Made by a program: the position numbers and the translations under genes. This document shows, one piece after another, positions 10,632-61,084 of a stretch of 64,000 nt of DNA. Each line of letters opens with the position of its first letter. The stretch's first letter is position 1. The notes below the pieces were generated by a model. It was not told the DNA's origin. It worked only from the letters and a program-made list of their open reading frames with translations, and did no database searches. This DNA comes from a virus. Its lineage: Duplodnaviria; Caudoviricetes. The stretch is taken from positions 13,287 to 77,286 of IMG/VR virus record IMGVR_UViG_3300037486_000510; one strand, 5' to 3'.

Positions 10632-12566
10632 CTACACGTGATATACATAAAAAATTTCTCCACATCCCTCGGCATTTTCGTGATCATAACTAAATGCATT
10701 CATTGTTCCTACAACTCCGTTTCCGGTCCCAGACGTAATCGTTATATTACGTATTATTGCGAAACCAGAAGACCAGATATCAACATCATAATCCACTTGA
10801 TAAGCATAATCACAATCTCCCCAGAACCCTATATATACTGAATTATCTTTTGTAATTCCGGTAACTGAAATATTTGCCCATTCAGAACCGCCATCATTGT
10901 ACGGACCCGGCTGACCCGGTAACATAATATCTGCACATCCTATTTGAGAAGAATCTTTTACTGCGCAACCCCATACCTCTACTTGTCCTTGCGTTACTTC
11001 TGTTGGAACACTAATTCCAATATTAACATATATGCTAATGTCAACTGTAACTGTTTGTGTGGTTAATCCACTAAATCGTAAATATCCTGAAGAATCAAAC
11101 TGTACATAAATATCTGAACTACCGGGTCCGTAGTATCCTCTTTGCCAAATAGTTACACTAGTTTGTGGTGCTTCAGAATTTATATATAACGTGCCCGATC
11201 TAGTAGTATTTAACGAATTTATATCTAATCTTACATCAAAAGACTGAATAGCTGCAGTAGACGATTCTTCTGGACTACAATGAATCCAATCTATATCTCC
11301 AGGGAGAGGTGGACATGGATTTAAATCTGGATCATATATGCCAGTTATATACCACCCAGTAATAGAGTTAGTCGATAAATCTACAGTGTATACAGATGAA
11401 TCTACTTCATCAAATATTCCAGAAGCATCTGCCCATAATACATGCATTATTGGATCTGTAACCCATAAATATGGAGCTTCAGTCGTTGTAAAAGATCTAC
11501 AAATAGAATTTCGTATCCACCCATTTTTATTAAATGACATGTAGTATTTGTATGGAGTAAGCTGTTCTAATCCATTTACAGTTAGTTCAGCATATTCTGC
11601 ACAATTATGATACACAAAAGGTCTAAATGTAGATGAATTAACTGTGACATTTATACTAGATAAATTTGAAACATCTTTGTACAAATATAAATCTGCAATA
11701 ACATCTGCGTCAGGAGTAAATTCTAATTTATCCCAAGTTATTGACGCAGAAGTATGTCCTGCAATAGAAGTAAACGATGATGGGTTTCTTTCAAAAACTC
11801 CATTAAATAATGAATTAGCATTTATTTCATAATTAGTTAATATTGTTCCATCTGCTGTGTTTGTAGTAAATCTTCCGCCAGGATCATCTCTATTAACTTT
11901 TAACGAAGAAACATCAAATATTAAGTGTGTATCTCTTAAGTTTCCATTATCATCTAAATTACCTATTCTAAATATATTTGCTGAAGCTTCTCTAACAATT
12001 GCGATTGATTGTTTGTCATCTTCGCCAGAAGAATATACTGTAAAAGGATTATAAACGCCAATTAACACATTTGAAAATTCTATTCTAGCATAGTTTTTAG
12101 GTTCAGTACCATATATTTTAGATGGTGTACTATAATAATTTATTTCTCCTGTTGAATATACATTATCTATAAGATATTTAGCAACATCATTGTTATTAAA
12201 ATATCGATTATATTTAAAAGTGTCTGACATAACTTCAGCAGAAGTAAAATAGCCTGCTGTACTTAGACTTGCGTATTTGTATACAAATTCTCCTGTGCAT
12301 GGATCTAATATTTCATATACACCTCCATTAAGATCAATGAATAAATCTCCTGTGTTATATGATCTACCCTCTGGCAATACTTCTGATGAACCAACAGTAG
12401 AAGCACATAATATTATATTACCCATAATGGCTGTATTTATTGTAGCTGTTTGAGTTCTTGCATCAAAATCTGTAAAATATATGCCTAAACCTGCTAATCC
12501 AGCAGACCCATCGTCTCCTCGTGTTCCGAATCCTGGTCTTCCTGGTGCATATTGAAATTTATCCAT
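10632..12566 (-). CDS. Virion fibre protein with collagen-like N-terminus, FN3-like and BACON-like domains
   Basis: PGRPGFGTRGDDGSAGLAGLG; GLEQLTPYKYY; WIHCSP...RSGTLYINSEAPQTSVTIWQ; late-type promoter 12579-12589. Confidence 0.65.
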   Translation of the reverse strand: MDKFQYAPGRPGFGTRGDDGSAGLAGLGIYFTDFDARTQTATINTAIMGNIILCASTVGSSEVLPEGRSYNTGDLFIDLNGGVYEILDPCTGEFVYKYASLSTAGYFTSAEVMSDTFKYNRYFNNNDVAKYLIDNVYSTGEINYYSTPSKIYGTEPKNYARIEFSNVLIGVYNPFTVYSSGEDDKQSIAIVREASANIFRIGNLDDNGNLRDTHLIFDVSSLKVNRDDPGGRFTTNTADGTILTNYEINANSLFNGVFERNPSSFTSIAGHTSASITWDKLEFTPDADVIADLYLYKDVSNLSSINVTVNSSTFRPFVYHNCAEYAELTVNGLEQLTPYKYYMSFNKNGWIRNSICRSFTTTEAPYLWVTDPIMHVLWADASGIFDEVDSSVYTVDLSTNSITGWYITGIYDPDLNPCPPLPGDIDWIHCSPEESSTAAIQSFDVRLDINSLNTTRSGTLYINSEAPQTSVTIWQRGYYGPGSSDIYVQFDSSGYLRFSGLTTQTVTVDISIYVNIGISVPTEVTQGQVEVWGCAVKDSSQIGCADIMLPGQPGPYNDGGSEWANISVTGITKDNSVYIGFWGDCDYAYQVDYDVDIWSSGFAIIRNITITSGTGNGVVGTMNAFSYDHENAEGCGEIFYVYHV

Positions 12567-12602
12567 GTTAATATCTTTTATTTATATATTTTAATCATTA
12601 TA

Positions 12603-14285
12603 TTATTCTGCTAAATAAAAACAATCGTCACAATCATTTACTTGATTAACCCCTACGAGTTTAGATCTTGCTCCGTCTAAAGATTTAACTTCGCATGATC
12701 CTAATCTATCAGATGTCCATGTTCTTTTATCGCAATTAACTGTAAAGCTTCCAGTACCTGTTCTTGGACTCGAAATAGATCCACCATTAGAAATTAAAAC
12801 CCATGAATCTGAAGGTATTACATACCATCTGTGTCCGGTTGGAGCAGTTACAGTAATTGTTCGGTATGGATATGCAGGCGAACAAAGTGTATTTAACGGA
12901 TTTGTGCATACTTGTGTATGATCAATAGTTATAGTTGGTGCTACATATGCTTGCTGATTAACTGTGACAGTTACTGGCTGAGCTTGTGAAGTTATAGTAA
13001 TGGTTCCTGATCGTGCGCCACCTGTATTTGCAGCAACACCTACACTAAATTGTGTAGCAGATATTACAGTAACAGGCGTAATCCATCCGCTATTTACAGT
13101 AAGATTCCATCCAGTGGCAGAGTCAGTCGTTACAGTTACTAAATTAGAACCGTAAATCGTTCCATCCGCTGAAGCGTCCAATGTTAAAGGACTGGCAGAT
13201 GTTGTAGGCAATGATCCAACAGTAGTCGAATTTATTGCAGAAGTTCTCTGCCAGCCATCGGCTACTATATTCATATGATAATAATAAATATCATTTTCTA
13301 ATAAACCCCTAATTGTAGCAGTGCCAGTTGTACTAACATCATAAAATATTAATGGATCAAAAGATTCTAGAGTGTCTTTGTAAACATACAAATTTCCTAC
13401 TGCGGCCGTTGATGCAGGCGTAAAATCATTTAAATTCCATGAAATTTCAAATGAAGATACATCACCATCAGATACATAAAATGATATGGGGGTTTGCGTA
13501 AATATTTCGAAGCCGTTATATAAAGAATTATTTCCAATTTCTGTATTAGTAAGTATTTCTCCTTCTGTAGTATCTATGCGTATTGGTGTAGAATTCTTTT
13601 TTAAAGTTGAAATATCAAATGTTAATGATGTATTTCGTATTGAAGTATCATTTCCAATTCTAAAAGTATTGCTATTTATATTTCTAACTATTGAAAACGC
13701 TTTATGATCATCAATATATCTATATTGTCCCGAAGAATAAACAGTAAATGGATTATAGATCGTATTCATCGGTATATTAGAATATTCTACTCTTGCAAAA
13801 TTTTTGGGTTTAATTCCATAAATTTTTGAGGGATAATCTAAATGTCCAGATCTTTGTAAATTATATACATTATCAATAATGTAGTTAGTTGCGCTTGGAT
13901 CAGATATATCAAAAATATTACGATATCTATCAAATACGCCATCGCCTGCATCAGCAGATGTATCTTGAAAATATGTTACAGTAGTAAATCTTGGAAATGG
14001 AGGATCAGTATACGATCCTTCTGATGCATCAGTAATTATAGTTATATGTCCTTCATTATCAACAATACTTTCATAATTAATATATCTTCTTCTACCCGGA
14101 AGAGGAGTTCCAATTAGATCAGTAGAAAATAAAGATTCGTTAGATTGAATTTTATTTGTGATAATAGCTATATCTGCTTCTAAATCATAATCAGTATAGT
14201 GCAATCCCATTGCGTGTATGCCAATAGATCCATCTGCTCCTTTTGCGCCATATCCAATTAAACCCGGAAAATATTGAAAATTCAT
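12603..14285 (-). CDS. Virion fibre protein, paralog of 10632..12566, with BACON domains
   Basis: Shared FQYxPG..G.G..G.DGS.G start and PSKIYG..PKN.AR.E.SN..YNPFTVYSSG core; GWNLTVNSGWIT...RSGTITITSQ..VTVNQ. Confidence 0.7.
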   Translation of the reverse strand: MNFQYFPGLIGYGAKGADGSIGIHAMGLHYTDYDLEADIAIITNKIQSNESLFSTDLIGTPLPGRRRYINYESIVDNEGHITIITDASEGSYTDPPFPRFTTVTYFQDTSADAGDGVFDRYRNIFDISDPSATNYIIDNVYNLQRSGHLDYPSKIYGIKPKNFARVEYSNIPMNTIYNPFTVYSSGQYRYIDDHKAFSIVRNINSNTFRIGNDTSIRNTSLTFDISTLKKNSTPIRIDTTEGEILTNTEIGNNSLYNGFEIFTQTPISFYVSDGDVSSFEISWNLNDFTPASTAAVGNLYVYKDTLESFDPLIFYDVSTTGTATIRGLLENDIYYYHMNIVADGWQRTSAINSTTVGSLPTTSASPLTLDASADGTIYGSNLVTVTTDSATGWNLTVNSGWITPVTVISATQFSVGVAANTGGARSGTITITSQAQPVTVTVNQQAYVAPTITIDHTQVCTNPLNTLCSPAYPYRTITVTAPTGHRWYVIPSDSWVLISNGGSISSPRTGTGSFTVNCDKRTWTSDRLGSCEVKSLDGARSKLVGVNQVNDCDDCFYLAE

Positions 14286-14308
14286 GTAACTACTTTATTT
14301 ATATATTT

Positions 14309-17300
14309 TTATTTTTCATATAGAGTAATTTTTATAAAATATGAATAATTTCCTGTTTTAGGAATTATTATTTTATAATAATATTCTCCGTTTATTTGTA
14401 CAGGTTGTCCATTAAAATTCTGTTTTTCATCAAGTATAAAATCAGAATTATGTGTATAAGCTATCTTGTTCAATGGCACTGATCTTCTTCCTGAAGATGA
14501 TGTCGTATAGTAAAAATCTAATTTTATTTTAGGCGCATTAATACCATAATAAGGCAAGACCGTATTTTTAATGTAGTCATTAATTATATTGTCAGCACTA
14601 GTTAATCCTGACCAGTTGCTTAAAAAAGTTAAACTAGAAGTAAATGTGTTTAAAATAGCTTTAGTTAAATTATAATATGCAGTTATTTCTGATGTAGTTT
14701 CACTATATCTCAATGTAGTTGTATCCCATTTATCAAATACTAGAAAATCAGGAAATTTAGGTAATTTTGATCCAAAAAAAGAAGGTAATTCTACCGGACA
14801 TTCATATCCATCTGTTGGCACACCATCTTTAATATAATAATCCCCATCCCATTGTGATTTAAATACGTTAAAATCTTTAATATAAGAAATCGCATTATCT
14901 GCGTCAAGATCTGCTTGAGAAATGTTTGACACTAATTTATTATACCATAATTGACTAATACTGTTATAATTTATTAAATTTGTATTACTCAAGATAAAAT
15001 CTTGATCAACTATGTCTATGAATTCTTTTTCTTCATCCGCTTTAAATTCAAATATATTATTAAACTTAGGTTGATACCAACCATTATATGTAGATATATT
15101 ATTGAACGATTTTGGAGAATTAACTGTGATAGTCATTAAATTTGCACTTCCAAAATCATAACTAGAATAAATATCATCGTCACGTATAATATAAAACATT
15201 ACGTTATTATACATAACATTATCATAATTGGGAGTTAATAAGTATTTTAAAGTTTCTATGTTGGTTGTGTTACTTATATATAAATTTTCATTAGAATTGT
15301 ATTTATATCCATAATTTATTGAATATTTACTAAATGTATTGCTATTAGGAAAATAACTATATAATGGAGCTTGTGTAAACGTATTATATGTTAACGGCGA
15401 ATAGAAAAAGTTATCAACAATTATATTTGCTCCAAATGCATTATAAATAGAACTAATTCCATTTATGTTTTTATTATATTGCGCGTAAGGTCGTGCAACA
15501 CTTGAATCGTAGCCATAATCTTTTCCGTATATATTTATTAAAAGTTTTGCAAGAGTAGAATTATTAACTATAAATGGTGTTTTTACAAATGAATAATAAG
15601 ATTGTGAAGGATCTGCAGATGTTACAAATGCAGAATTTGTAGAATCTAATAAAGATTTGCCAGGTAGATATGAAGAATATCTTGCAGTGTAATTTAATTC
15701 ATCGTTTCCTTGGTACCAAATCATCAAGATTGTTCTTGTATTTTCATTTATAATTACTTCAATTGGATGTTTAGATGTTTTGTTTTTAGAAGGAGTAGAA
15801 ATAAATGAAAATCTAAATCGATTATAGTTTTTTAGGTCTATTAGTTGTTTCGCTATGTACTCAAGAGATAATGATAATTTTAATCCCGTAATAGTAACAT
15901 CTAGAGAATCTTTATAATTATTGTAATAAGATATTGAAGAACGCGTTATTGCAGCATCAACATTATAATTTGAATAAATTAATTTTGAAAAATAATCAAC
16001 ATAAGGATACGCAAACATAGCATCTTTAAATGATAAATTATTAGATGAATCTACTATATCGTTTATATCATAAAAAATATAATTTTCCCATGCTCTTGTT
16101 CCAGGAGTTAAATATTTAAATACTGGATAACTAATTTCTTGAGAAAATTGTGATGCGTCAGGTATAAAATTCGATGTCATTCCCGTCTGAAATGATGATC
16201 CATTTAATTTAAGCAATAATGGATTATTTCTACAATCTGTACCTAATCCAACCCACTTTGAAACAGTTGGAACTGTTAATCCATATTTTAATAAGGCGCT
16301 TGAATCATAATACGAACCAATATTTTCTACGTTTGCGTCTGAATATCCAGTGTATGCAAATGATGTGTCTAATACTGCATAAGTTATTATAGTATCTGTG
16401 TTAGTCTCAAAATCTATACTTGAATCAAATGTATTAAAAAGTGTAGAAACATCGTATGTATTAGGAGTTCCATCTTTAGTAAAAATTCCTGTCCCTGATT
16501 TAATAATATAAGAACCTTGAATATCTAATGTATAATTTGAACATGCATCTAGTGAAATTTGATATGTATCAACATCATCTTCTCTATTATATGAATATTC
16601 GCTTTGATAATTTAAATGTGTTGAATCATAAACTGCATTATCTATATCTTTTACGGGATTTATTCCTAATAATGAAATATTAAGAGGAGATATGCTATAA
16701 GCGTTAAATTTATTTACTACAGTGTTAATATCTTCTGCAGTCATTATTAACATTTTATCACCATTTTGAATAGGTTCTTTAACATATAAATAACTATTAT
16801 TAGACACATCTAAATATAATATTTTTTTGTACCAAAGATCTTTTCCTTGATATAGAGTTGGTGTTTCAAATTTATCAAGTATATTTTGCAATGAATCAAA
16901 ATAATAAAAATTATTATTTCCTCGATTGATAAAATTTAACATTATACTTTGACGATTTCCAAAAAATTCAAAATCTATTGGTCCAAATGATGCATCATAA
17001 GCAATAGTTTCAAAATCAGTTAAAGACGGAGTAAATCTTCCAAAAAAGGCTATATCTGACGCTCTTGCACTATTATTAAAATTAGAAGATGAATCGTTAA
17101 TATTATTTAATGTAGTAGCCATTATTCTTTGAAACATCCATTCTTCTGTTGGATCAGCATCGTCAGTAAGAATAATAGATGCCCAATTGCTTCCGCTATT
17201 TCCTGATTTAAAACATGTTCCATCATATTCTAAAAATCTATTAAACGCCTTTTCTATTTCTTGAACTTGATATGTTATATCGCCGTTTATATCAAAATAT

Positions 17301-19036
17301 GTATGGTATATTGTAGGATAAATTCCGCTAGCATCTTCAGAAATTGAACAATAAACATTGCAATCATAGTCAGACGCATTTGTGGAATATGCTTCCCAAA
17401 TTTTATTTTGAGTTTTGTTTACAACTCTTAAATGTTCTCCTTGTTCAAGTACATTGTTAAGAGTCAATGTAATAAATGAATTTATGCTATTATCTTTTAC
17501 AACATCTACACTAAAAATATTTTTGTATGGTTTACTTACATATGAGTTAAATGTGGCGCCATTAATTTGATTTACGTTAATAATTCTTTGAAGTTGAATT
17601 TGGTCATTCAATACAAATATTCTATTTTTATATGAAGACATAATAGTTCCCCAACTTGAGTCAAATACTGAAGAATGCATAAATACACTACTATCTTTTC
17701 CATCAAGCGATATAATTTCAATATTTCCGCCCGATGTATCTGAGTAATATGCTATATTGTATAAAATATTTTCAGTTAAATACAAACCAAAATATCTACT
17801 CATTGTGTAAAGACTTGCGTCACTATCACTAAATACATATTCTATGTTTATTAAATTGGGACATAATAAATTTTGTCTAGAAAATCCATCTGATATAAAC
17901 GCGTTTATATCAGTAAAGTTATCTGTTTTTTGATTAAAGAAATATGGATCTTCTGATCTTCCTGTTAAAATTCCTCTATCTACGGCAATACCATACCATG
18001 TATTTGGGTCTGTTTCGGATAAATTGATGCTAGGATCAATTGGATTTGTTAAAGATAAAAATACAGGTGCTTGAATTTTAACAACATCTGCTAAATGTGT
18101 TGTTAAATATTTTCCAAGATTTGATTCTGGTTTTAAACTCCAACTTTTAATTATATTACTATTTTGTAAATATTGAGATGCTAAAGTATTAAGAGATGGA
18201 TTGTAAAGATATGTATCTGCATTATATACTCCGTTTAATTTAAATATCGCAAAATAATCAGGTAATTTAGAATTTATCCATAACGGCGCTAATAATCCAT
18301 TATCTTGATCATATAATTCATCAAATAATATTCTTGCGCCATAATTATATGTGGTAATATACTGATCTTTATAATCTAATTTAGGAAGATCTATTACAAG
18401 AGTTTTATCATTATCAATAGAATATAATGCTCCAGTATTTATTAATGTTGAAAAATTATTTCTTATATCGCTAGATAATACGCTATTCGCAGATATTACT
18501 TTTTTACGATAAGTTTTATTTGATAAGAGTTCTGATACTTTAAAGGTATCTAAAAATAAATTATTGCTAGTATCTACAACTAATTTAACATTTCCTGTAA
18601 ATTTGGGATTAGTTCTTAATAACAAATAAGATGCTTCGCCATCAACCAAAACATTTTCACTATTATATGTACTAACAATTCCTTCTCTGAGTGTATATAC
18701 TTTATTAAATATTGAAACATCTACTGTATCTGCTACATTGCCAGCAGACACATCATCTTCTGAACTATAAAAATTAAAGGTGAGATTTGTACTAAAATTG
18801 TAATTAATATCTGTAAAAATATGAAAAGATGCTATATTATTAGTTGCATCTAAATATATTGCGTAATACGCACTATTTTGTACGTAATTGTTTATGTCTA
18901 ATCCATTAACATACAATATATTATCTCCTATACTAGCATCAGGTATTACCAGATAATCTGTCGCGTCATAGGTGAAGTTTAAAAATGCTTCAGGATTTTT
19001 TGTAGTTAATATAGCTGTATCGTTGAATTGTTTCAT
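14309..19036 (-). CDS. Large virion (baseplate-region) protein
   Basis: 1575 aa, N/S/Y-rich, inside structural operon; about 22 D-x-S motifs. Confidence 0.7.
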   Translation of the reverse strand: MKQFNDTAILTTKNPEAFLNFTYDATDYLVIPDASIGDNILYVNGLDINNYVQNSAYYAIYLDATNNIASFHIFTDINYNFSTNLTFNFYSSEDDVSAGNVADTVDVSIFNKVYTLREGIVSTYNSENVLVDGEASYLLLRTNPKFTGNVKLVVDTSNNLFLDTFKVSELLSNKTYRKKVISANSVLSSDIRNNFSTLINTGALYSIDNDKTLVIDLPKLDYKDQYITTYNYGARILFDELYDQDNGLLAPLWINSKLPDYFAIFKLNGVYNADTYLYNPSLNTLASQYLQNSNIIKSWSLKPESNLGKYLTTHLADVVKIQAPVFLSLTNPIDPSINLSETDPNTWYGIAVDRGILTGRSEDPYFFNQKTDNFTDINAFISDGFSRQNLLCPNLINIEYVFSDSDASLYTMSRYFGLYLTENILYNIAYYSDTSGGNIEIISLDGKDSSVFMHSSVFDSSWGTIMSSYKNRIFVLNDQIQLQRIINVNQINGATFNSYVSKPYKNIFSVDVVKDNSINSFITLTLNNVLEQGEHLRVVNKTQNKIWEAYSTNASDYDCNVYCSISEDASGIYPTIYHTYFDINGDITYQVQEIEKAFNRFLEYDGTCFKSGNSGSNWASIILTDDADPTEEWMFQRIMATTLNNINDSSSNFNNSARASDIAFFGRFTPSLTDFETIAYDASFGPIDFEFFGNRQSIMLNFINRGNNNFYYFDSLQNILDKFETPTLYQGKDLWYKKILYLDVSNNSYLYVKEPIQNGDKMLIMTAEDINTVVNKFNAYSISPLNISLLGINPVKDIDNAVYDSTHLNYQSEYSYNREDDVDTYQISLDACSNYTLDIQGSYIIKSGTGIFTKDGTPNTYDVSTLFNTFDSSIDFETNTDTIITYAVLDTSFAYTGYSDANVENIGSYYDSSALLKYGLTVPTVSKWVGLGTDCRNNPLLLKLNGSSFQTGMTSNFIPDASQFSQEISYPVFKYLTPGTRAWENYIFYDINDIVDSSNNLSFKDAMFAYPYVDYFSKLIYSNYNVDAAITRSSISYYNNYKDSLDVTITGLKLSLSLEYIAKQLIDLKNYNRFRFSFISTPSKNKTSKHPIEVIINENTRTILMIWYQGNDELNYTARYSSYLPGKSLLDSTNSAFVTSADPSQSYYSFVKTPFIVNNSTLAKLLINIYGKDYGYDSSVARPYAQYNKNINGISSIYNAFGANIIVDNFFYSPLTYNTFTQAPLYSYFPNSNTFSKYSINYGYKYNSNENLYISNTTNIETLKYLLTPNYDNVMYNNVMFYIIRDDDIYSSYDFGSANLMTITVNSPKSFNNISTYNGWYQPKFNNIFEFKADEEKEFIDIVDQDFILSNTNLINYNSISQLWYNKLVSNISQADLDADNAISYIKDFNVFKSQWDGDYYIKDGVPTDGYECPVELPSFFGSKLPKFPDFLVFDKWDTTTLRYSETTSEITAYYNLTKAILNTFTSSLTFLSNWSGLTSADNIINDYIKNTVLPYYGINAPKIKLDFYYTTSSSGRRSVPLNKIAYTHNSDFILDEKQNFNGQPVQINGEYYYKIIIPKTGNYSYFIKITLYEK

Positions 19037-19045
19037 ATTTTATTT

Positions 19046-33195: not shown

Positions 33196-33247
33196 AGTTA
33201 GGAGTAGGAAAATTTTTAGGTTAAGTAATAATTTGTGCATTCATATT

Positions 33248-36790: not shown

Positions 36791-37120
36791 TTAATATACT
36801 GATACATCAGTTATTAATCCATTTAAAACTGTTATGTGTGTTGAACCATCCACGATAAATGTTCCTGAATAAGTAGAAGTATCCTCATTTAATTGAGTAA
36901 TATTTCTTTTTACTATAACATCATCAGCTATAAGAGTAACAAATTCTCCTGTAGCGCCCTTTACTCTACCAGTAGTGTTTACTGGCTTTATGAGAATTCC
37001 CCCTGAAGTACTAGCATCATAAAATAAATTCAAATAATTTTGAAACACTCTATTATTATAATCATAAATAGAAGGAAAGTCTGGTATCATTGAAGTTAAG
37101 AATACATTTTTCAAGTCCAT
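36791..37120 (-). CDS. Small virion protein
   Basis: 109 aa; promoter ATATATAAAATA at 37138-37149; 4 D-x-S motifs. Confidence 0.65.
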   Translation of the reverse strand: MDLKNVFLTSMIPDFPSIYDYNNRVFQNYLNLFYDASTSGGILIKPVNTTGRVKGATGEFVTLIADDVIVKRNITQLNEDTSTYSGTFIVDGSTHITVLNGLITDVSVY

Positions 37121-51250: not shown

Positions 51251-51736
51251 ATGACAACACAATTAGCTAGATTTTTAGATCACAACATGTCCGAACCATG
51301 GGACTTATTATTCAAAGATCTCTTTAACAGAGATTCATTATTTATGCCGGTGATAAACACCAAAGCATCTTATCCAACAGACATTTATGAAGACGAAAAA
51401 TCAGTGACTATAGAAGTTGCTGCTGCTGGTCTTGATAAAGATGATATCCAAATTGAAGAACAGGATGGTCTTCTTAGTATTTCTTACGAAAAAAGTGAAG
51501 AAACAAAGAATGAAGAACCAAACTATATTCAAAAAGGAATTGCAAAAAGATCTTTCTGCTTAAGCTGGAAGTTCTCAGATAAATTCGACCTTACTAACAT
51601 TGAGGCTACTATGGAAAAGGGAATTTTAAAAATCAATATTCCTAAAACCGAAGAAAAGCCTATTATTAAGAATACGATAAAAATCAAGGAACTTGCAGGC
51701 GCAAAAGAATCAACAAACAAAAAACTAAATAAATAA
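51251..51736 (+). CDS. hsp20: Small heat-shock protein Hsp20
   Basis: PTDIYED...IEVAAAGLDKDDIQI...LSISYEK...KGIAKRSF...IEATMEKGILKINIPK alpha-crystallin domain. Confidence 0.95.
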   Translation: MTTQLARFLDHNMSEPWDLLFKDLFNRDSLFMPVINTKASYPTDIYEDEKSVTIEVAAAGLDKDDIQIEEQDGLLSISYEKSEETKNEEPNYIQKGIAKRSFCLSWKFSDKFDLTNIEATMEKGILKINIPKTEEKPIIKNTIKIKELAGAKESTNKKLNK

Positions 51737-51788: not shown

Positions 51789-54700
51789 TTATATTGATAT
51801 AGGCAAAGGAAGCTGCCCCGGGAATCCATAAGTTTGTGCGCCCTTTGTTACAAAATCTTTAAGTAAAAATTCATCCCATCTAAGATTTAAAGGCGTAAGT
51901 AATTCATATTTTGGAAAAGAATCTTTAGTTATAATCAATGGCATTGAAGCCAATAAAGCAGTCTTATATGCTTTAAAATTAAATATTGTTTTACTTAATT
52001 TATTTTCAATATTAGAAGACATTGTAAGAGCATTAGTTAATTTAAATTTTTCGATAATAGGATTTAATACATTATCATTAACGTTATCGTCTAATTCTTT
52101 TGCTATATTAATTATAGGCTTAGGATTTTTTAAAGTAAATCCAAAATTTGCAGATTCAGGAGAAATAGCTATTGGCAATGTTGCTAACAATTTATTTGCG
52201 TTATCTATTATAGTTGTTAAACTTGCATATTGTGCATCAATAAATTTTTGAGATGCATCTATTGAATCCGAAATTCCCTCTGCTGGCTTCCCAAAATCAT
52301 GAGCTTCTTGTAAAATTCTATATTTGGTTTGAAATTTCCATAATTTAATTTGTTCTGTTGCCACCAATTCTGCTAATTCTGTATATCTTGTAGTCCATTT
52401 AACATATTCATCTACATAATTTATATTTCTCTGTATTCCTCTTTCTATATCTCCTAATTCAAATTCTCCATTTTTATCATCAATATATTTTGAGGGTTTT
52501 TTACTTTTATTTTCTTTAATCTGTTGTTTGTAATTATTTATATTTTCAATACATCTATCAATATCTTTTTTAGTCTCAACCATTAAGGGCTTAAGACTAA
52601 TTTTTTTCAAATTTGTTATTTGTTCTGAAATTTCCTTTTTAAGTGCATCAACTTCCTGTTTAATCAATCCTATAGGATCTATAAAAGGAAGTGTATAGTT
52701 TGTAGAAAAATTTCCAAACAAAACCATCGGAAATAAATATATTCCACAGATAGTTAGGCCTAATAAAATAAAACCAGATTTAGTTTCTATGGGTTTTATA
52801 GGAACATAAACAACTGGAAATGGAATAGGAACGGGCGTTATCCATCCAGTAGACCAACCAGTTATTGGATTTATACAGCTTGCTAATGTAGCGCCAGCGC
52901 AATATTTTAACCAATATCTAATATCTCCATATCCATATTTTGATCGAGGACTTAAATGTTCATCTTCTGGCGCAGGTTCGCATTTAGCTACGTCAGCAAT
53001 TGCATAATATCTTGCTTGTTTATCTTTATATGTAATTATAGAATAAGGTGAAAATAAAGCTAAACTATCTATTATTTTTTCAATATCTTTAATTTGACTT
53101 TGTAAACCATAATATTCTTTCCATAAATCTTCAAAAAATATTGTTAGCCAATTTCCTTCTTTTATCGTTTCATCTTTAGATGTAGTTTCTTTTTTTATTG
53201 TATTGTATTTTGCTACTCTATTATTTACATTTAAATAGTATTCAAATAAATATGTTACTTTATTTACAGCCACTTTTTTTTCATTATAATCAAGTTTATT
53301 ATTTTTATCTGCTAAATTCGTTAACCAATTTTTTAGATCTTCTAGATTATTTTTTCTGTGATAAACTTCAAGAGCCTTTTTAAACCAGTTGCCTGGACTG
53401 TTACCTTTTTCTATATTTTGAATAAGATTATCAAGATGATCTTCTAATTTATTTTTATTAAAACCATCTAAAACATATCTTTTATCAATCCATTCATTTA
53501 TTTGATCTCTAAATGTGATTTCTATTTCAGTAGGATATTCTAAAGAATTTAATACCATACCCAAATCAAACATATAATAAGAAAAGAGTTCATATTCTTC
53601 TTTTTTTGCCTTTGTTTTTTTAGCTACATTATTTGCTTCTGCATTTAATAATCGTATATTTCTATAAAATAATTCTTGTTCTTTTTCTACTTCTTCCTTT
53701 ATTTCATTAAGAGTTTCATTTTTAGCATGACGTTCTACATTATCTTTCCCTGTTATATCTTTAATATTTTTTTCGTAATCTTTGATAATCTTCTTTTTAT
53801 AATTTTTTTCAATTTTTTTATATTCATCATCTACTCTCGAATTAGTATTACGTGTAGATGTATCATCAATTATTGCAATTGAAAGCATAGAAGGATATAA
53901 TGCATTTATAAGATCATCTTTTAAAAATGCTTTTACGTCATTTAATCTTGCATATTTTGTATTTAATAATTCTATTTGTTCGGTTAAATAATCATTTGTA
54001 TCAGATATATCTCTAAGAATAATTTGATTCGTACTTATATCATCAACATATCCTTCAACAGGCGCAAATACTTGAATACCTTCAAGAATAGCAATTATTG
54101 ATTTTTGAGTAACATGAGTATCTTTATCAACAACTATTCTAAAATTTTCTTTTGTACGATTATTTCTAATTATCGCTGTTGTTGCAAGATCTTCTTTAAC
54201 AACTACATCATTAACTATCATTTCTCTTTCTGCTATTTCGCAAGAAAGATCTTTCATCTTTTCAGAAAGTGGTACATATGGCACCACGACATCATCGATG
54301 TTAACAGGACAATTTAGATTGATCGTAAAAGGTACTTTATTAATTGAAATATCAAATGCTTCTGGAACACTCAAACACGCTGTTTCACCTGCAATTTCAT
54401 TAAATGTTTGCTTTGAATATTCTGCAAGTTTACGTCTATTGTATAAATAAAGAGAAGTAAACGCAACAATTGTAATTAATACAGCATCTAAATTTTTAAA
54501 AGCATTAAGAAAGTTTTGAAATAACGGCTTATATTCTTCTGTCATAGTATCATACTCACTTTTCATCATTCCATATACTGTACGCAGCAATCTTTGAATA
54601 TATTTTGTCCTATATCCAGATGGATGATCTGTTCTTGTAAATAAATCTTTTATTTTGTGTATGATATCTTGTAAAATAAGAGTATATGTTTCAATTCTTT

Positions 54701-55325
54701 CTTTGATACCCTCTTTCAATTGTTGTAAACTATCTTTTAATTGTGTTATTTCAGCATCTACACCAGATTTTATTTGTGCTTCTATATTTTCCGGTAAATT
54801 TTTAATTCCCTCTAAATGAGATTTAAATTTTTCTATTATTTCTTTTCTATTTGCAATTATTCCAGCTACTGCTAATGTTATTGATGCAATTTGTTCGTAA
54901 TCAATTTTCTGATCAATATCACTAATGCTATTTATATAATTGATAGCTTGATTTGCATCTAAATTTTCATCTAAAACGGGCATATTTTCTTCTCCTGATT
55001 CTCCATAACATGCTAAAAGCATATCTGAAAGATATTTGTTGTTCAAATCATTAGAAGCATATTTTATTATAGTACTTGCTCTTGGATTTTTTCTTATAGC
55101 CTCTTTGAGTTCGGCCTCATTCATTTGCCTTTTAATTAATTGATTTACAATTAACTGAATTGCAGCAAACGCCGCCATTTCTAATAATTCTCTTTTAGTA
55201 GGAATACTAAAATATAATCTCTCGAGTTCCATATTTAAACGGAATTTAAGAGAAGTTTTTGCTGCTTCGTATTCTTTTTTAGCTAAATCTTTTCCTTTGC
55301 TTAATATATCATCTAATATGCCCAT
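51789..55325 (-). CDS. Large hypothetical coiled-coil protein with hydrophobic segments
   Basis: 1178 aa; K/E-rich helices; barrel-sandwich-like VxxxxxVxxxxIIAxxxxxxVxAPVEGYV; Cys/Pro-rich WLKYC...PIPFPVVYVP. Confidence 0.7.
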   Translation of the reverse strand: MGILDDILSKGKDLAKKEYEAAKTSLKFRLNMELERLYFSIPTKRELLEMAAFAAIQLIVNQLIKRQMNEAELKEAIRKNPRASTIIKYASNDLNNKYLSDMLLACYGESGEENMPVLDENLDANQAINYINSISDIDQKIDYEQIASITLAVAGIIANRKEIIEKFKSHLEGIKNLPENIEAQIKSGVDAEITQLKDSLQQLKEGIKERIETYTLILQDIIHKIKDLFTRTDHPSGYRTKYIQRLLRTVYGMMKSEYDTMTEEYKPLFQNFLNAFKNLDAVLITIVAFTSLYLYNRRKLAEYSKQTFNEIAGETACLSVPEAFDISINKVPFTINLNCPVNIDDVVVPYVPLSEKMKDLSCEIAEREMIVNDVVVKEDLATTAIIRNNRTKENFRIVVDKDTHVTQKSIIAILEGIQVFAPVEGYVDDISTNQIILRDISDTNDYLTEQIELLNTKYARLNDVKAFLKDDLINALYPSMLSIAIIDDTSTRNTNSRVDDEYKKIEKNYKKKIIKDYEKNIKDITGKDNVERHAKNETLNEIKEEVEKEQELFYRNIRLLNAEANNVAKKTKAKKEEYELFSYYMFDLGMVLNSLEYPTEIEITFRDQINEWIDKRYVLDGFNKNKLEDHLDNLIQNIEKGNSPGNWFKKALEVYHRKNNLEDLKNWLTNLADKNNKLDYNEKKVAVNKVTYLFEYYLNVNNRVAKYNTIKKETTSKDETIKEGNWLTIFFEDLWKEYYGLQSQIKDIEKIIDSLALFSPYSIITYKDKQARYYAIADVAKCEPAPEDEHLSPRSKYGYGDIRYWLKYCAGATLASCINPITGWSTGWITPVPIPFPVVYVPIKPIETKSGFILLGLTICGIYLFPMVLFGNFSTNYTLPFIDPIGLIKQEVDALKKEISEQITNLKKISLKPLMVETKKDIDRCIENINNYKQQIKENKSKKPSKYIDDKNGEFELGDIERGIQRNINYVDEYVKWTTRYTELAELVATEQIKLWKFQTKYRILQEAHDFGKPAEGISDSIDASQKFIDAQYASLTTIIDNANKLLATLPIAISPESANFGFTLKNPKPIINIAKELDDNVNDNVLNPIIEKFKLTNALTMSSNIENKLSKTIFNFKAYKTALLASMPLIITKDSFPKYELLTPLNLRWDEFLLKDFVTKGAQTYGFPGQLPLPISI

Positions 55326-55333
55326 TTACTATT

Positions 55334-55462: not shown

Positions 55463-55473
55463 TTTTCTACTTT

Positions 55474-55620: not shown

Positions 55621-55654
55621 GATAAATACATTTTATTGTATTTATTCATTTCTA

Positions 55655-56578
55655 TTATTTTAGTTCAATTGAATTATATGTTCTAGCCCAATCAATATAT
55701 TCATTAAGTCCATCTTCTAATTCTATTTTAGGAAAATAGCCAAGTTTTTCTTTTGCTAATGAAATATCTGCTAAACTGTGTTTAACATCTCCAGGTCTTT
55801 CATCAATATATTTAATTTCTCCGCTTATCATTTTAGCGAGGTTGTTGATCGTAACACGTTTTCCGCTTGCAATATTAAATGCGCCTTTAATTCCTTTAGT
55901 CTCTGCTGCCTTTATATTAGCTTGAACTACATCATTCACATTAACAAAATCTCTTGTTTGTTCTCCGTCTCCATAAATAAATAGCGGTTTATTTTGAAGC
56001 ATATTAAATACGAAAATAGGAATTACATTTCCATATGCGTCAAATCTTTGATTTGGCCCATATACATTAAAATATCTAAGACAAATAACTTCCATATCAT
56101 ATAATTTAGAATATGCAAGAGATAATTTTTCTTCACATAACTTTGTACATCCATAAGGAGAATCTGGTTCAATTGGATGATCTTCTTTTATGAGTATAGT
56201 TTTTAATTCACCAAATATTCCGGCAGAAGATGAAACTACTATTTTATGTATATTTTTTTTTCTAGCAGCTTCTAATACGTTTAAAGTTCCAATTACATTA
56301 GTTTCAGCATCTATAATAGGATAATCAATTGAACGTTTATTACCAACAGACGCAGCCAAGTGAAATACTGTATCAACATTATGCATAGCAATTTCTACAA
56401 TTGCTCGATCTCTGATATCTCCTTCAATAATATTAATAGATTTAAATGGAATAATGTTATCTTTATATCCTGAAGAAAAATTATCCAAGATTGTTACGGT
56501 TTTTCCTGATTCAATTAAATATTTAACAATATTTGAACCTATAAATCCTGCGCCTCCTGTAACTAAAATATTTTTCAT
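55655..56578 (-). CDS. NAD-dependent NDP-sugar epimerase/dehydratase (GalE/WbpP-like extended SDR)
   Basis: ILVTGGAGFIGS, FHLAA, SSAG, YGCTK, LRYFNVYGP, RDFVNVND. Confidence 0.95.
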   Translation of the reverse strand: MKNILVTGGAGFIGSNIVKYLIESGKTVTILDNFSSGYKDNIIPFKSINIIEGDIRDRAIVEIAMHNVDTVFHLAASVGNKRSIDYPIIDAETNVIGTLNVLEAARKKNIHKIVVSSSAGIFGELKTILIKEDHPIEPDSPYGCTKLCEEKLSLAYSKLYDMEVICLRYFNVYGPNQRFDAYGNVIPIFVFNMLQNKPLFIYGDGEQTRDFVNVNDVVQANIKAAETKGIKGAFNIASGKRVTINNLAKMISGEIKYIDERPGDVKHSLADISLAKEKLGYFPKIELEDGLNEYIDWARTYNSIELK

Positions 56579-57693
56579 TTTTTTTCACATAATAAAATTA
56601 TTCTAATATTATTATTAATATCAGGCCTATGTGATTGCACTTTTTTGGTAATATTAAATTCTTTAGATATTACATTAACTAAATCTTGATTAGTTTCAAA
56701 TATTACAGTTTTTGATTTAATGTTATGTAAGGCTTCCTTAGTATTCGAAAAATAATGAAGAACGTTTAAACACAGAGTTATATCATATTCAGCAGATATT
56801 TCTTCGCCACCTGTCCATCGTTTAAGATTTATTATATCGCCTTCAATTTCATTTATATAATTGGTAGTTTCTAATATTTTTGGATTAATATCAAATCCAG
56901 TAACATTGGCGCCTTCTTTTGCTGTCTTTAAAGAAAAATAACCATGAAAACATCCTAAATCTGCTACTTTTTTACCCTTCCAATCAACTAAATTTTTTAT
57001 ATTATCCCAAGTTTTAAATGATTCTGTATAACCAATAAAATTTATACATTCTATATCTTGATATAATTTATCATATTCTTGTTTATTAATATACTGTAAT
57101 AGATTTTCCTTTCTAATTGCATTTATATTATCTTCATTTATCCAAGAAATTCTTTTATATAATTCTTCTTCTGATATAAATTCATTAGCATATGAATCAA
57201 AATATTCAATATTTAATTTAGAAAAAATTTTTTTAATTATTAGATGATAAAAATTATAATATTCATTATACGCTTGAATTTTATATGTAAATTTTAATCT
57301 TTTTTCAAATTCTTGTCGATTTGTACAACAAACACAAATAATTTTAATGTCATCTTTATTTTTTTCATAATAATCTAAAAAATTTAAACGTCCGTATACA
57401 TGAGACCACCCCTCTAAATTTAATTCTAATGCATTTGACATGCATACGCTATTTAGTGTATTATCAATTTTATATTTATATGGAATTGCGTCTATGATAA
57501 ATTCATCCGGTAATTTTTGAATTAATTTTTCATATTGATTTTCTATTGTTTCTACATATCCTCCCCAATTTGCTTCAAAATCAAAATACAGTATGTTATA
57601 AAAAACACTAAAAAATTTAGTAAATGTAGTTTTTCCTGAACCAGATAACCCAGTTACAAATATTTTTTTTTCGTTAAATTTTTTTAAATTCAT
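56575..57693 (-). CDS. P-loop kinase-like domain fused to class I SAM methyltransferase
   Basis: GLSGSGKTT; VADLGCFHGYFSLKTAKEGANVTGFDIN; YDITLCLNVLHY. Confidence 0.8.
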   Translation of the reverse strand: MNLKKFNEKKIFVTGLSGSGKTTFTKFFSVFYNILYFDFEANWGGYVETIENQYEKLIQKLPDEFIIDAIPYKYKIDNTLNSVCMSNALELNLEGWSHVYGRLNFLDYYEKNKDDIKIICVCCTNRQEFEKRLKFTYKIQAYNEYYNFYHLIIKKIFSKLNIEYFDSYANEFISEEELYKRISWINEDNINAIRKENLLQYINKQEYDKLYQDIECINFIGYTESFKTWDNIKNLVDWKGKKVADLGCFHGYFSLKTAKEGANVTGFDINPKILETTNYINEIEGDIINLKRWTGGEEISAEYDITLCLNVLHYFSNTKEALHNIKSKTVIFETNQDLVNVISKEFNITKKVQSHRPDINNNIRIILLCEKK

Positions 57694-60600
57694 TTGCTTT
57701 AATATTTTTTTCTTTTTGTGTTTCTTTTAAAATATTTTTATTTTTACTATGCAATGGTAAAAAATCATCTCTTTTATAATATACATGTGGATGATTTTGG
57801 TGTATTACTGTAATATCATCTACAATTTTTTTATTTAAGCCTAATCTATCAATTCGTTGGATAAAATCATTATCATCAAATCCTATGCCTTCTGCGAATC
57901 TTTCATCAAATCCATTTAATTTTTCTATATTTTTTCTTGTCATTGCAGCGCAAAAATGAAAATATACTGGTCTATATTTTGAATGATTATACCAACCCAC
58001 ATATTCTTCACTCGAAACAGTAGCTATATGTGGTGGTAACGTATTAATAAATTGCATAATAGTATCATTTTCAATATATTCATCAAGTTTTTGCGTATTT
58101 TCATTATTCATTGAAAACGTTGACATAGTTAAATAATCATTATCTTGAATATTTTCATCTACATATGTAAGTACATCATGCACATGTAAACATTCTGGAT
58201 TTTGAAGAATTATTATACTTCCAACAGCTGTACGTATGCCTATATTAAAAGGAATACATGGATTTACGTACCATTTATCTTCTGGCTCTATTCTAATTAT
58301 TTTTAAAAACGGAAATTCTGAAAGATATTCTTCTAATCGATGTTCTGGCAAACTGCCATCGTCAACTGCAATCAATTCAAAATCTTTAAATTTTGATTTT
58401 TGAATTGATTTTAATGTTCTATAGAATAATTCTTTTCTATTATAATATGCTGTTACAATAGATATTTTAACATATTTTCCCCAATCCTTTCCAATGTTTC
58501 TAACTAAAATATTTTTTCTTTCTAAATATAATTTATAATTATAAACCCAATCAGGATTATCCCATTGTACTAACCCTGTAGCTCGTTTACCGTGATATAA
58601 ATGTACTATTTGAGCATCCACCATATGATATTGTGCTCCATTTAATTTTAATCTATCAATTAAATCATTATCATCGCAAGCATAACCAATAAGATCTTCA
58701 TCATATCCGCCAACATCTATTAATCTTTTTTTGACAATTGCCATTAAAAACGGCATTTTTACATGATCTGTTCTGGGCGAACATGCATCTTTTAAATATT
58801 CATCTGGTGATTTTGTTAAATGAGGATATTTTTCTGGTGAAATTTGCTTCATTAAACTTGATGTGTAATAATTATTATCATCAAAATACATCATTTCCGG
58901 TATAACTAAATAATTATCATTATTAAGTAAAGGCTCGATAATTTTGTTTATTCCTTCATTAAGATGATAAATTTCTGGACAAGTTAATATTACAATATTT
59001 CCGCGTGAATGTTTAATACCAATATTTAATGGCATAGCGGGATTTCTGCTTGTTAACTTTTCCTTAGTATTTCTATATCCTGAAAAAATGTATTTAATAT
59101 TCAATTTATCTTTATATAAATAGCACATCTCTTTAGTACCATCGTCATCTAATCCATCATTAACTATAACTACTTCAAATGGATAATAAACTTTTTGTTT
59201 GGCTATTGATGAAAGTCCCAGATTTAATAATTCTGCTCTATTGAATGATGACATTATTATAGATACTTCAGGTTTTTCTATTTTATCAGATATAGCATAC
59301 TTCGGCTTATCTATTTTCATATTAATTATTTCATCTGCAATTAATGAGAACGTTATTTTATAGTTTTTATAATTTTTTTCATTTAAAATATTATTATATT
59401 TTTGAGATTCTACTCCTCCACCATACCAGTGATATCCTATTGAATCTTTATCAAATCCATCAATTTTTATTGAATTCGTAAAACAATAATTTATTTTAGT
59501 CCAATCAAACTTATAAATTAGATTTGTGGGTAAATTATAAAAATTTAAGTATGGGTATTTTGCTAAAATATGTTTATATATGTTTGATGAATGTAGATGT
59601 CCGGTAAACATTTTATAAATTAATTGTACACCCATAGATTGATAATTATCTTCTATTTTTTTATTTTTATCTTTAATAAGTATTTCATTAATGCCAAATT
59701 CAAATAAATTTTTATAATATTTATTATTTACAGATGCACCTAAAAAACCAATTGTTAATGTTTTTTCTGAAGATTGATATTCGTGTATTATTGTATCATA
59801 TCCATTTTCAATAATTTTTTTATAAAAATCATCTATAGGTCTAAAAAATAGTACATCCATATCACAATATAATCCGCCATCTTCATATAACTTATAATAT
59901 CTAAATATATCACTTTTATGCACAGGCGATAAATTTTTTAATTTATCTTGTATTTTAATTGGAAACTCCGCTGGCTTAATTTGTATATTTAAATTTTTAA
60001 GTTTGTTAAAATAATTATCTCCTTTATAATTGTAATAATCTTGATCTTCGTCGCCATTCCATCCTTTATTTCCAATATTATTATAAGATACATATAATGT
60101 CATTTCCCAATTAGGATTCATTTTTCTAAATGAATATAATGTCATATATCTCATCCAAGATAAATCGCTTCCGCCCCAATAAAAAAATATTTTTTTAGGA
60201 ATAATTCTTGTTAAATAAAAATCAGGTTTTTTGACATTTGCTAAAAATAATTCCGATTCTTTTTGAAGTTTATAATTCTTTAAACATAGTAAATCTGTTT
60301 CCTTTTCTATTTTTGCATTTTCGTTAATATTATATTTTTTAATTTGCGCACTATATATTTTTTTTAATTTTTCATCTTCATTAAGTTTGAAATCGCTATT
60401 ACAATTTCTTTTATAAAACAAACAATTTTCTAATTCTTTTACTTTTACAAAATTATATACGCGTTCAAATAATTCAATGTCTGAACCGATAATCCAATTT
60501 TTATATCCTCCCGCTAATTCTAATACCTGCTTATTGAATAAGAAAACCCCCTCATTAAACCAGAATTTATTTTTTGCAATGTTAGTAATTTCTTCATCAA

Positions 60601-61084
60601 AATCTTCATAATTAAATTTTACAATATCATATTCATTTGCATATTGCATTATTTCTTCAATCATTTCTGGTTTCATTATATCATTCCCATTAAATCGAAG
60701 AATTGTATCAAATTTTACTAAATCTAATAAAGTATTTAACGTAACATAAGTATCATTATGTTTTGACATTTCATAGATAGCAATATTTCTATATTTAGAT
60801 TTAATTGCATATAATGTCTCTAATGTATTTTCACAATCATCTACACCAATTAATATTTCATAATTATTGTTATTAATAAAATATGTTTGTTTTTCAATTG
60901 AATCTAAGCATTCTTCAATATAATCAGCAATCTGAAAAGCATAGATAATGATACTAATAGGCTTTTTGATATTAAGATTTAAGGGTGCCTTTTTACATTT
61001 TTCTTGTATTTGACGCAATTCTTCTTTAATAGCAAGATATCGCTTCATTTGATCGTCAGCAGCTCGGGCGCTTGATGTAGACAT
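57674..61084 (-). CDS. Four-domain glycosyltransferase (GT2-like, GT32-like, GT2, GT2)
   Basis: ISIIIYAF..GVDD; PKKIFFYWGG...SDIFRY..LYEDGGLYCDMDV; VSIIMSSFNR..VNDG..GGYDEDL; ISIVTAYYNR..VDDGS..GFDERF; promoter 61105-61115. Confidence 0.9.
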   Translation of the reverse strand: MSTSSARAADDQMKRYLAIKEELRQIQEKCKKAPLNLNIKKPISIIIYAFQIADYIEECLDSIEKQTYFINNNNYEILIGVDDCENTLETLYAIKSKYRNIAIYEMSKHNDTYVTLNTLLDLVKFDTILRFNGNDIMKPEMIEEIMQYANEYDIVKFNYEDFDEEITNIAKNKFWFNEGVFLFNKQVLELAGGYKNWIIGSDIELFERVYNFVKVKELENCLFYKRNCNSDFKLNEDEKLKKIYSAQIKKYNINENAKIEKETDLLCLKNYKLQKESELFLANVKKPDFYLTRIIPKKIFFYWGGSDLSWMRYMTLYSFRKMNPNWEMTLYVSYNNIGNKGWNGDEDQDYYNYKGDNYFNKLKNLNIQIKPAEFPIKIQDKLKNLSPVHKSDIFRYYKLYEDGGLYCDMDVLFFRPIDDFYKKIIENGYDTIIHEYQSSEKTLTIGFLGASVNNKYYKNLFEFGINEILIKDKNKKIEDNYQSMGVQLIYKMFTGHLHSSNIYKHILAKYPYLNFYNLPTNLIYKFDWTKINYCFTNSIKIDGFDKDSIGYHWYGGGVESQKYNNILNEKNYKNYKITFSLIADEIINMKIDKPKYAISDKIEKPEVSIIMSSFNRAELLNLGLSSIAKQKVYYPFEVVIVNDGLDDDGTKEMCYLYKDKLNIKYIFSGYRNTKEKLTSRNPAMPLNIGIKHSRGNIVILTCPEIYHLNEGINKIIEPLLNNDNYLVIPEMMYFDDNNYYTSSLMKQISPEKYPHLTKSPDEYLKDACSPRTDHVKMPFLMAIVKKRLIDVGGYDEDLIGYACDDNDLIDRLKLNGAQYHMVDAQIVHLYHGKRATGLVQWDNPDWVYNYKLYLERKNILVRNIGKDWGKYVKISIVTAYYNRKELFYRTLKSIQKSKFKDFELIAVDDGSLPEHRLEEYLSEFPFLKIIRIEPEDKWYVNPCIPFNIGIRTAVGSIIILQNPECLHVHDVLTYVDENIQDNDYLTMSTFSMNNENTQKLDEYIENDTIMQFINTLPPHIATVSSEEYVGWYNHSKYRPVYFHFCAAMTRKNIEKLNGFDERFAEGIGFDDNDFIQRIDRLGLNKKIVDDITVIHQNHPHVYYKRDDFLPLHSKNKNILKETQKEKNIKANEFKKI

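Follow-up and report, generated by a model that had tools for sequence, protein, structure and literature searches.

A lineage-wide D-x-S motif in the outer virion proteins of Lak-like megaphages, a putative recognition site for serine modification

Virion glycosylation by a phage's own enzymes has a precedent in the mycobacteriophages, whose phage-encoded glycosyltransferases (GTs) O-glycosylate virion proteins (Freeman et al. 2023, as cited in PMC12619734). As summarised in that citing paper, the glycans are placed on virion proteins made in the cytoplasm, at the C-terminal Ser/Thr-rich ends of capsid and tail-tube subunits, and the summary gives no defined sequon for them. Here we analysed a 64-kb window (the whole stretch of DNA under study) of a single 77,286-bp viral contig, IMG/VR record IMGVR_UViG_3300037486_000510, with a CheckV completeness of 19%. 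Like the mycobacteriophages, it represents a tailed phage with GTs of its own; the candidate acceptors here are instead fibres and outer baseplate proteins, and they carry a four-residue motif. We found that this motif, D-[VATPGSI]-S-[AILVMT], is lineage-wide among Lak-like megaphages, being present both in an environmental clade and in the gut Lak phages.

The phage is an uncultured Lak-like giant phage, and its BACON domains and kinship to Prevotella Lak phages make Bacteroidota the likely host phylum. Bacteroidota reportedly have a general protein O-glycosylation system with the sequon D-(S/T)-(A/I/L/V/M/T) (Fletcher 2009; Coyne 2013). The phage motif shares with it an Asp before the acceptor Ser and the same aliphatic/Thr set after it, but has one inserted residue and strongly prefers Ser over Thr. 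The host system is periplasmic, whereas 11 of the 12 phage proteins that carry the motif lack an export signal and are predicted to be cytoplasmic; the single signal-like hydrophobic N-terminus belongs to a 2176-aa (amino acid) protein (Kyte–Doolittle 19-residue maximum 1.92, at residue 4). The host form D-[ST]-[AILVMT] occurs 46 times in the outer proteins against 52.1 expected (0.88×), which rules out the host sequon as the cause of the excess and agrees with the preliminary description of this DNA, where the two motifs had been held to be distinct.

Two further groups of enzymes can be compared. Chlorovirus and mimivirus virions are glycosylated by virus-encoded soluble multi-domain GTs, among them PBCV-1 A064R, which joins two GT modules to a methyltransferase. 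The likeness lies in a soluble multi-module GT accompanied by methyltransferase and sugar-nucleotide enzymes, predicted to act late in a very large virus, and in atypical, virus-specific acceptors; compared by description, those systems differ in belonging to eukaryotic viruses and in making N-linked or fibril glycans. The staphylococcal enzymes SdgA and SdgB glycosylate Ser in Ser-Asp repeats, and BAHT heptosylates autotransporter beta-helices. They resemble what is considered here in that cytoplasmic O-glycosylation falls on Ser beside Asp, or on the surfaces of beta-rich adhesins. They belong to other GT families (PF01075, GT9, is absent here), and their acceptors are a dipeptide repeat or beta-helix rungs, in contrast to the dispersed D-x-S-aliphatic sites of the phage.

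The outer virion proteins of the window are listed below with D-x-S counts, observed versus expected, together with one inner protein that is not a carrier. ATATATAAATA is an 11-mer taken up further on; nt, nucleotides.

10632–12566, minus strand: fibre protein, 644 aa, N-terminus paralogous to that of the 560-aa protein; D-x-S 10 versus 4.7; ATATATAAATA 13 nt upstream
12603–14285, minus strand: fibre protein with Gly-rich N-terminus, 560 aa; D-x-S 10 versus 3.9; ATATATAAATA 11 nt upstream
14309–19036, minus strand: fibre-module protein, 1575 aa; D-x-S 22 versus 12.4
19046–21343, minus strand: fibre-module protein (phrog_29329), 765 aa; D-x-S 7 versus 3.4
21364–23082, minus strand: fibre-module protein without a family match, 572 aa; D-x-S 10 versus 3.4
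23127–26696, minus strand: five-LamG_3 protein, 1189 aa; D-x-S 22 versus 8.5
26710–33240, minus strand: right-handed beta-helix and BACON protein, 2176 aa; D-x-S 40 versus 13.1, the 500-aa beta-helix holding only 5
33248–35938, minus strand: two-LamG_3 protein, 896 aa; D-x-S 12 versus 5.5
35953–36708, minus strand: single LamG_3 protein, 251 aa; D-x-S 3 versus 2.2, not enriched
36791–37120, minus strand: virion-module protein, 109 aa; D-x-S 4 versus 0.6, all of them full four-residue motifs
44482–48297, plus strand: gp7-like outer baseplate wedge protein, 1271 aa; D-x-S 26 versus 7.9, four-residue motif 14 versus 1.5
48300–51107, plus strand: fibre of tandem FN3-like repeats (Pfam fn3), 935 aa; D-x-S 15 versus 4.9, at repeated domain positions
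42316–44211, plus strand: gp6-like inner baseplate wedge protein (PHROG baseplate wedge), 631 aa; non-carrier, D-x-S 1 versus 2.6

Pooled over the twelve outer proteins, D-x-S was observed 181 times against 70.6 expected (z = 13.1), and 2000 per-protein shuffles gave a mean of 70.7, a standard deviation of 7.9 and a maximum of 110. When all 400 residue pairs were scored at spacings 0–3, D-x-S was the lone outlier among the 1,600 combinations, with the runner-up below z = 5. The other 51 proteins show no excess (37 versus 49 expected). The preliminary description had started from hand counts for the gp7-like protein, the 1575-aa protein, the FN3 fibre and the 109-aa protein (26, 22, 15 and 4, respectively) and from a near-absence in inner ones. 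These counts were exact, the gp6-like protein has a single D-x-S and the S1-domain protein none, and in the outer proteins D-x-S stayed in excess after composition correction, with D-x-T, E-x-S and S-x-D not enriched. Two of its observations held in part. The conserved gp7 core (residues 150–471) is indeed free of D-x-S, which is not significant in a Ser-poor core where 1.0 would be expected. The LamG and beta-helix proteins do contain many sites (12, 22 and 40), but the 251-aa LamG_3 protein is not enriched, LamG domains have a baseline of 1.35× and few of the sites lie in the beta-helix itself.

The excess is narrowly defined. In the outer proteins none of DxT, ExS, NxS, SxD, DS and DxxS is enriched, and the flat DS, DxxS and SxD counts rule out local loop composition as the cause. 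Pairs typical of turns are not enriched either (NxS 0.85, DxN 0.72, DxG 0.60, NxD 0.57, DxD 0.94 and DxT 0.8), so ordinary turn propensity does not explain D-x-S. The serines within D-x-S are encoded by both codon families (AGY 42%, TCN 58%), which rules out a motif at the DNA level and indicates that selection acts on the protein. The entire excess falls on sites where x is V, A, T, P, G, S or I (153 versus 35.1 expected, against 0.79× for other x), and A, I, L, V, M or T is favoured directly after the Ser (4.1× versus 1.65× otherwise), with only weak residue preference beyond that position. The resulting four-residue motif, D-[VATPGSI]-S-[AILVMT], occurs 89 times in the outer proteins against 13.1 expected, a 6.8× excess that is inflated by having been fitted on the same proteins. 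A MIDAS metal site has the form D-x-S-x-S (PMC13721041). Such a site was ruled out, as DxSxS (13 versus 6.9 expected) is merely what the D-x-S excess implies, Ser is not enriched at +4 of D-x-S, and no vWA domain appeared among the library matches.

The gp7-like protein helps to place the motif in its lineage. It is 26–33% identical to its counterpart in Prevotella Lak megaphages, environmental contigs as long as 405 kb carry more than 160 orthologues of it, and in tblastn searches it retrieved gp7-region proteins of Lak, Tenacibaculum and Flavobacterium phages. Relatives in IMG/VR (49–63% identity) show the same threefold D-x-S excess in the gp7-like protein and the adjacent fibres. In 120 gp7-like orthologues, D-x-S occurs 3312 times versus 1030 expected, and the median excess of 3.26× matches the 3.27× of the window protein; eight homologues of the 109-aa protein, also from relatives, have 28 versus 9.0 expected. 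When taken to Lak, the four-residue motif as fitted on the window turned up in the giant baseplate proteins of Lak-A1 (25 versus 3.5 expected) and Lak-B3 (23 versus 3.7). This six- to sevenfold enrichment is an independent test of the motif. The sites conserved in the gp7-like proteins of the environmental clade differ in position from those of Lak, and both lineages are enriched.

No comparable excess was seen in T4, Tenacibaculum PTm1 or Flavobacterium MaF61, where the four-residue motif is at about 1–1.6×, or in Chryseobacterium MA9V-1 and three huge phages of 460–735 kb with recognisable gp7-like genes (0.8–2.3×). These phages rule out a general property of baseplates and fibres. The related form D-x-T-aliphatic reaches about 2.1–2.5× in the giant Lak proteins and 0.77× in the window phage; with this form enriched in Lak only, the preference between Ser and Thr would differ between the lineages if an enzyme reads the motif.

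A few observations on the relatives themselves can be added. The baseplate loci of Lak-A1 and Lak-B3 require TAG to be read as Gln, upon which their coding capacity rises from about 5,600 to about 12,800 aa. The window phage fits code 11, with long open reading frames (ORFs) and, over 62 ORFs, 52 TAA, 6 TGA and 4 TAG stops; recoding is therefore not common to the whole lineage. In one relative (L129:22130–23116) a 328-aa fibre protein consists of a 29-residue tandem repeat with two D-x-S and one N-x-S per unit, and has 16 full motifs versus 1.05 expected. A further gp7-like orthologue, P0113, lies on a 160-kb contig that carries the NCBI label 'Candidatus Nanoarchaeia archaeon' and is most likely a mis-binned megaphage.

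Comparison with homologous domains outside the lineage shows that the motif is not inherited with the fold. The FN3-like repeats of the 935-aa fibre belong to a family of about 27,000 members, whose 149 nearest representatives have D-x-S at 1.02× and the four-residue motif at 0.96×. Two positions illustrate the difference. On the conserved xSFxT strand of these repeats, the position two before the Ser holds E or Q in 62% of homologues and D in 7%, whereas it holds D in three of four cases in the window phage. After the sequence P-T-x-x, homologues that have an Asp continue as D-S-x or D-x-x; D-x-S is found in 19 of 2997, versus 4 of 10 in the window phage. LamG_3-rich homologues average 1.35× D-x-S, so that part of the excess is intrinsic to that domain family, compared with 2.6× in the window protein and 3.25× in its nearest homologue, which is probably also from a phage. 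As the FN3-like and LamG homologues lack a comparable excess, the lineage has rewritten borrowed domains to create the motif, and we argue that a lineage-specific factor selects D-x-S on outer virion proteins whatever their fold.

An AlphaFold2 model of residues 1–1200 of the gp7-like protein (alignment of 77 sequences, mean pLDDT 82) predicts beta-sandwich domains arrayed about the conserved core; a Foldseek search of the model against the PDB returned only generic multi-beta-sandwich matches with TM < 0.1. In the model, 22 of 25 D-x-S sites lie in loops, mostly as the first residues past a strand or as a three-residue link between strands, and from this secondary structure the sites appear to be exposed. 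At 15 of the 26 sites of the window protein, kept in 45–90% of 97 orthologues, D and S are conserved while the middle residue is free. Ser is more conserved within D-x-S than elsewhere (0.61 versus 0.38), and joint loss of D and S is 3.4 times commoner than independence predicts.

The window also contains a glycan operon, which the preliminary description had proposed as the source of the enzymes that read D-x-S and had described as headed by the same promoter as the virion genes. Its features are as follows.

55655–56578, minus strand: NAD-dependent nucleoside diphosphate-sugar epimerase/4,6-dehydratase, 307 aa
56575–57693, minus strand: protein with an N-terminal P-loop and an S-adenosylmethionine-dependent methyltransferase domain, 372 aa
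57674–61084, minus strand: four-module GT-A glycosyltransferase, 1136 aa (Pfam: GT2 three times, Gly_transf_sug, Glyco_transf_7C)
61105–61115, minus strand: ATATATAAATA, 21 nt upstream of the GT start

The shared promoter was confirmed as a sequence match. The T4 late-promoter core TATAAATA forms part of the 11-mer ATATATAAATA, which occurs five times against 1.33 expected by chance; the other copies, at 9031, 12579, 14296 and 36721, are likewise on the minus strand, intergenic and correctly oriented. Four of the five lie 11–21 nt before a start codon, three of them at fibre genes and one at the GT operon, while the fifth is about 160 nt upstream of a 594-aa gene (7089–8873). With its TATAAATA core placed shortly upstream of genes, ATATATAAATA has the sequence hallmark of a T4-type late promoter, and the operon is predicted from this common motif to be expressed late, alongside the fibre genes.

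The 1136-aa GT comprises a GT2-like module (residues 42–154), a DXD 'Gly_transf_sug' module (~295–590), a GT2 module (608–827) and a GT2 plus Glyco_transf_7C module (873–1090); its NCBIfam matches are all below the cut-off. No convincing membrane segment was found in the operon proteins, the hydropathy of the GT reaching a 19-residue window maximum of 1.51, below the usual transmembrane level of 1.6. These proteins form a real soluble set that could build a glycan, and a late, soluble, multi-step set of this kind is what virion glycosylation would need. The 36 homologues of the GT come from freshwater or sediment megaphage contigs. The homologues are 60–75% identical, on a handful of low-GC contigs, so the operon looks like an accessory cassette of a subclade. 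An IMG/VR search with the GT as a single query found nothing.

We consider that the motif is best, though still tentatively, explained as a recognition site for an enzyme of the phage lineage that modifies the Ser, with cytoplasmic O-glycosylation as the most likely chemistry. According to this proposal, the motif would be placed in exposed loops at the ends of beta-strands of outer baseplate and fibre proteins, whatever their fold; an enzyme belonging to the lineage would read it and modify the Ser; and the modification would be an O-glycosylation that takes place in the cytoplasm, either ahead of assembly or in the course of it. The reading enzyme would be conserved across the lineage, with small GT25-family transferases as the best candidate found, while the late operon of the window (the four-module GT, the methyltransferase and the epimerase/dehydratase) would be a strain-level cassette that supplies or extends the glycan and does not define the sequon. 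Thus the idea in the preliminary description that D-x-S is an acceptor sequon is retained insofar as the motif behaves like a lineage-specific recognition site and not like a product of composition or fold; the link to the operon at 55655–61084 is not.

The case for GT25 comes from distribution. GT2 (PF00535), GT1 (PF00534) and GT9 (PF01075) were missing from Lak or from every record tested, and were ruled out as the lineage-wide GT because they do not follow the lineage. In contrast, PF01755 (GT25) scores above its curated cut-off in four environmental relatives (G004, G005, G006 and G008), Lak-A1 and Lak-B3, and is absent from T4, PTm1, MaF61, MA9V-1, LR756500 and LR745206; that is, it was found in six of six records with the motif and one of seven without. 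The GT25 proteins are small (about 225–270 aa), with 28% identity between the environmental clade and Lak (E 7e-17), and among 50,697 phage records homologues were found only in 15 Lak genomes and three huge phages. In Lak-B3 a three-gene operon ending in GT25 is preceded by an exact ATATATAAATA; TATAAATA was not found upstream of the GT25 genes of environmental relatives. Virus-encoded GTs and sugar-nucleotide enzymes are thus present, by Pfam in the window operon and as GT25 in relatives, and GT25 tracks the motif better than the operon of the 1136-aa GT does.

Several points weigh against a modified Ser, or against the enzymes considered for it. The modification itself, its identity as a sugar and the choice of reading enzyme are all inferred. 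With the 6.8× of the window inflated, the Lak value is the unbiased measure of the motif. The association of GT25 with the motif traces back to one or two evolutionary events and is confounded by phylogeny, which makes it a lead; LR756501 has a GT25 and yet shows no excess at its gp7 locus; and the 77-kb fragment, 19% complete, contains no GT25 gene, the GT25 cluster of relatives lying 40–60 kb beyond the baseplate genes, i.e. past the end of this contig. The 1136-aa GT has no homologue in 15 Lak genomes or in the complete 405-kb relative G004, and in 438 ORFs adjoining its homologues in other megaphage contigs the four-residue motif is at 1.02×. Furthermore, about 23 alignment columns, with D-x-S in 50 or more of the 98 sequences each, account for the gp7-like excess, and young D-x-S sites are no commoner than those of control motifs. 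This rules out turnover at constant density in the gp7-like family, and agrees better with structural positions that are fixed than with a glycan shield subject to diversifying selection. Finally, where the Ser of D-x-S is lost it becomes N, D, T or G and almost never A, whereas A is what other serines most often become; this is the pattern expected of a polar structural turn position.

These last observations lead to the best-surviving alternative, that of a purely structural idiom, which we regard as a serious competitor, though somewhat less likely than a modified Ser. D-x-S would then be a strand-end cap or tight beta-arc that ends strands in beta-sandwich arrays with nothing attached, the Asp and Ser bonding to the backbone or to each other and the small x and following aliphatic residue packing into the core, while the GT operon would serve otherwise, for instance on the host envelope, on another acceptor or in making decoy glycans. 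Classical Asx and type I beta-turns prefer D or N at i and S, T, D, N or G at i+2. The phage sites resemble these in lying at turns after beta-strands, at strand ends or in three-residue connections, and in the replacement of Ser by the turn-formers N, D and G. The conserved columns without an excess of young sites, the intrinsic D-x-S positions of LamG_3, the independence of motif density from the window operon and the tandem repeat of the L129 fibre also speak for a structural role. However, a physical turn preference should be general, whereas FN3-like homologues, T4 and other Bacteroidota jumbo phages have no excess. Only D...S is enriched, and residues that would form the turn equally well (N for D; N, D, G or T for S) are depleted. 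The favoured V, I and T at x are beta-branched, and beta-branched residues are unfavourable at i+1 of classical type I or Asx turns. Inner virion proteins that are also rich in beta-structure avoid the motif: 76 gp6-like orthologues, which are not independent samples, have 68 D-x-S versus 196.6 expected. The canonical beta-helix domain is hardly enriched, with its 5 sites in 500 aa.

It is a good deal less probable that the motif is read by a lineage factor other than a GT, i.e. a Ser kinase or other Ser-modifying enzyme, or a chaperone or decoration protein that docks on it. The evidence for specificity and lineage restriction applies here equally, none of it identifying the chemistry, and the acidic residue at −2 and hydrophobic residue at +1 of the Ser resemble the Polo-like kinase consensus D/E-x-S/T-hydrophobic. 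An Hsp20 gene directly follows the FN3 fibre gene, and recurs in relatives. However, searches of the 77-kb fragment turned up no kinase and no other enzyme that modifies proteins; the candidate modifiers that did appear were all GT genes, and one family of these follows the lineage. The weak preference beyond Ser+1 likewise leaves no clear I-x-I motif of small Hsps.

That the operon at 55655–61084 itself recognises and glycosylates D-x-S, as first proposed, is similarly improbable: it shares a late-type promoter with the fibre genes, lies about 7 kb from them and combines a soluble multi-GT with sugar-nucleotide and methyl-transfer enzymes, but the motif is equally dense without it, in Lak, in G004 (gp7-like protein 29 versus 8.4 expected) and across the 120 orthologues, it occurs in none of the 10-kb flanks of 80 relatives, and proteins beside GT homologues in other phages are not enriched.

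The baseplate module of the window is T4-like, with gp25-like, gp6-like and gp7-like proteins, and a block of giant fibre-type proteins on the minus strand contains LamG_3, right-handed beta-helix, BACON and FN3-like domains. Further genes encode a gp32-like single-stranded DNA-binding protein, an amidase, homing endonucleases, an S1-domain protein and Hsp20. Side observations on individual loci are listed here.

6245–7084 and 9065–9811: paralogous pair with a DUF7487 domain, one also with a C2H2 zinc finger
37259–38503, 38587–39336, 61192–61827 and 62606–63304: among the virion genes, an S1-domain protein, two GIY-YIG/NUMOD3 homing-endonuclease-like genes and an ankyrin-repeat protein
51251–51736, plus strand: Hsp20/alpha-crystallin gene immediately after the FN3 fibre gene, recurrent in the flanks of relatives; it may be a fibre chaperone
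51789–55325, minus strand: 1178-aa protein without a Pfam or PHROG match, with a strongly hydrophobic segment near residue 852, kept in the flanks of 36 relatives; a tape-measure-like role is only a guess

Returning to the proposal of a modified Ser, its fullest form is that Lak-like megaphages, among them the Lak phages of human and animal guts, have a cytoplasmic Ser-O-glycosylation of their own with a private sequon, D-(small)-S-(aliphatic/Thr), in which GT25-type enzymes conserved in the lineage would initiate the glycan and swappable GT cassettes would diversify it, giving a glycan-coated baseplate and fibres. We put this forward as a speculative possibility. Literature searches found no described O-glycosylation sequon for phage fibres. 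The window offers about 180 predicted sites, several of them on small expressible domains. If the motif is instead structural, it would still be a lineage marker that rewrites the widely shared FN3 and LamG domains, strong enough to pick out the outer virion proteins of Lak-like genomes, in which annotation is missing for most genes. If the serines are modified, D-[VATPGSI]-S-[AILVMT] would be the first acceptor sequon to be defined for a protein-modification system encoded by a phage, and the first indication of a glycan-coated receptor-binding apparatus in the largest gut phages, with a bearing on host range, on the immune recognition of gut phages and on the resistance of their fibres to proteases.

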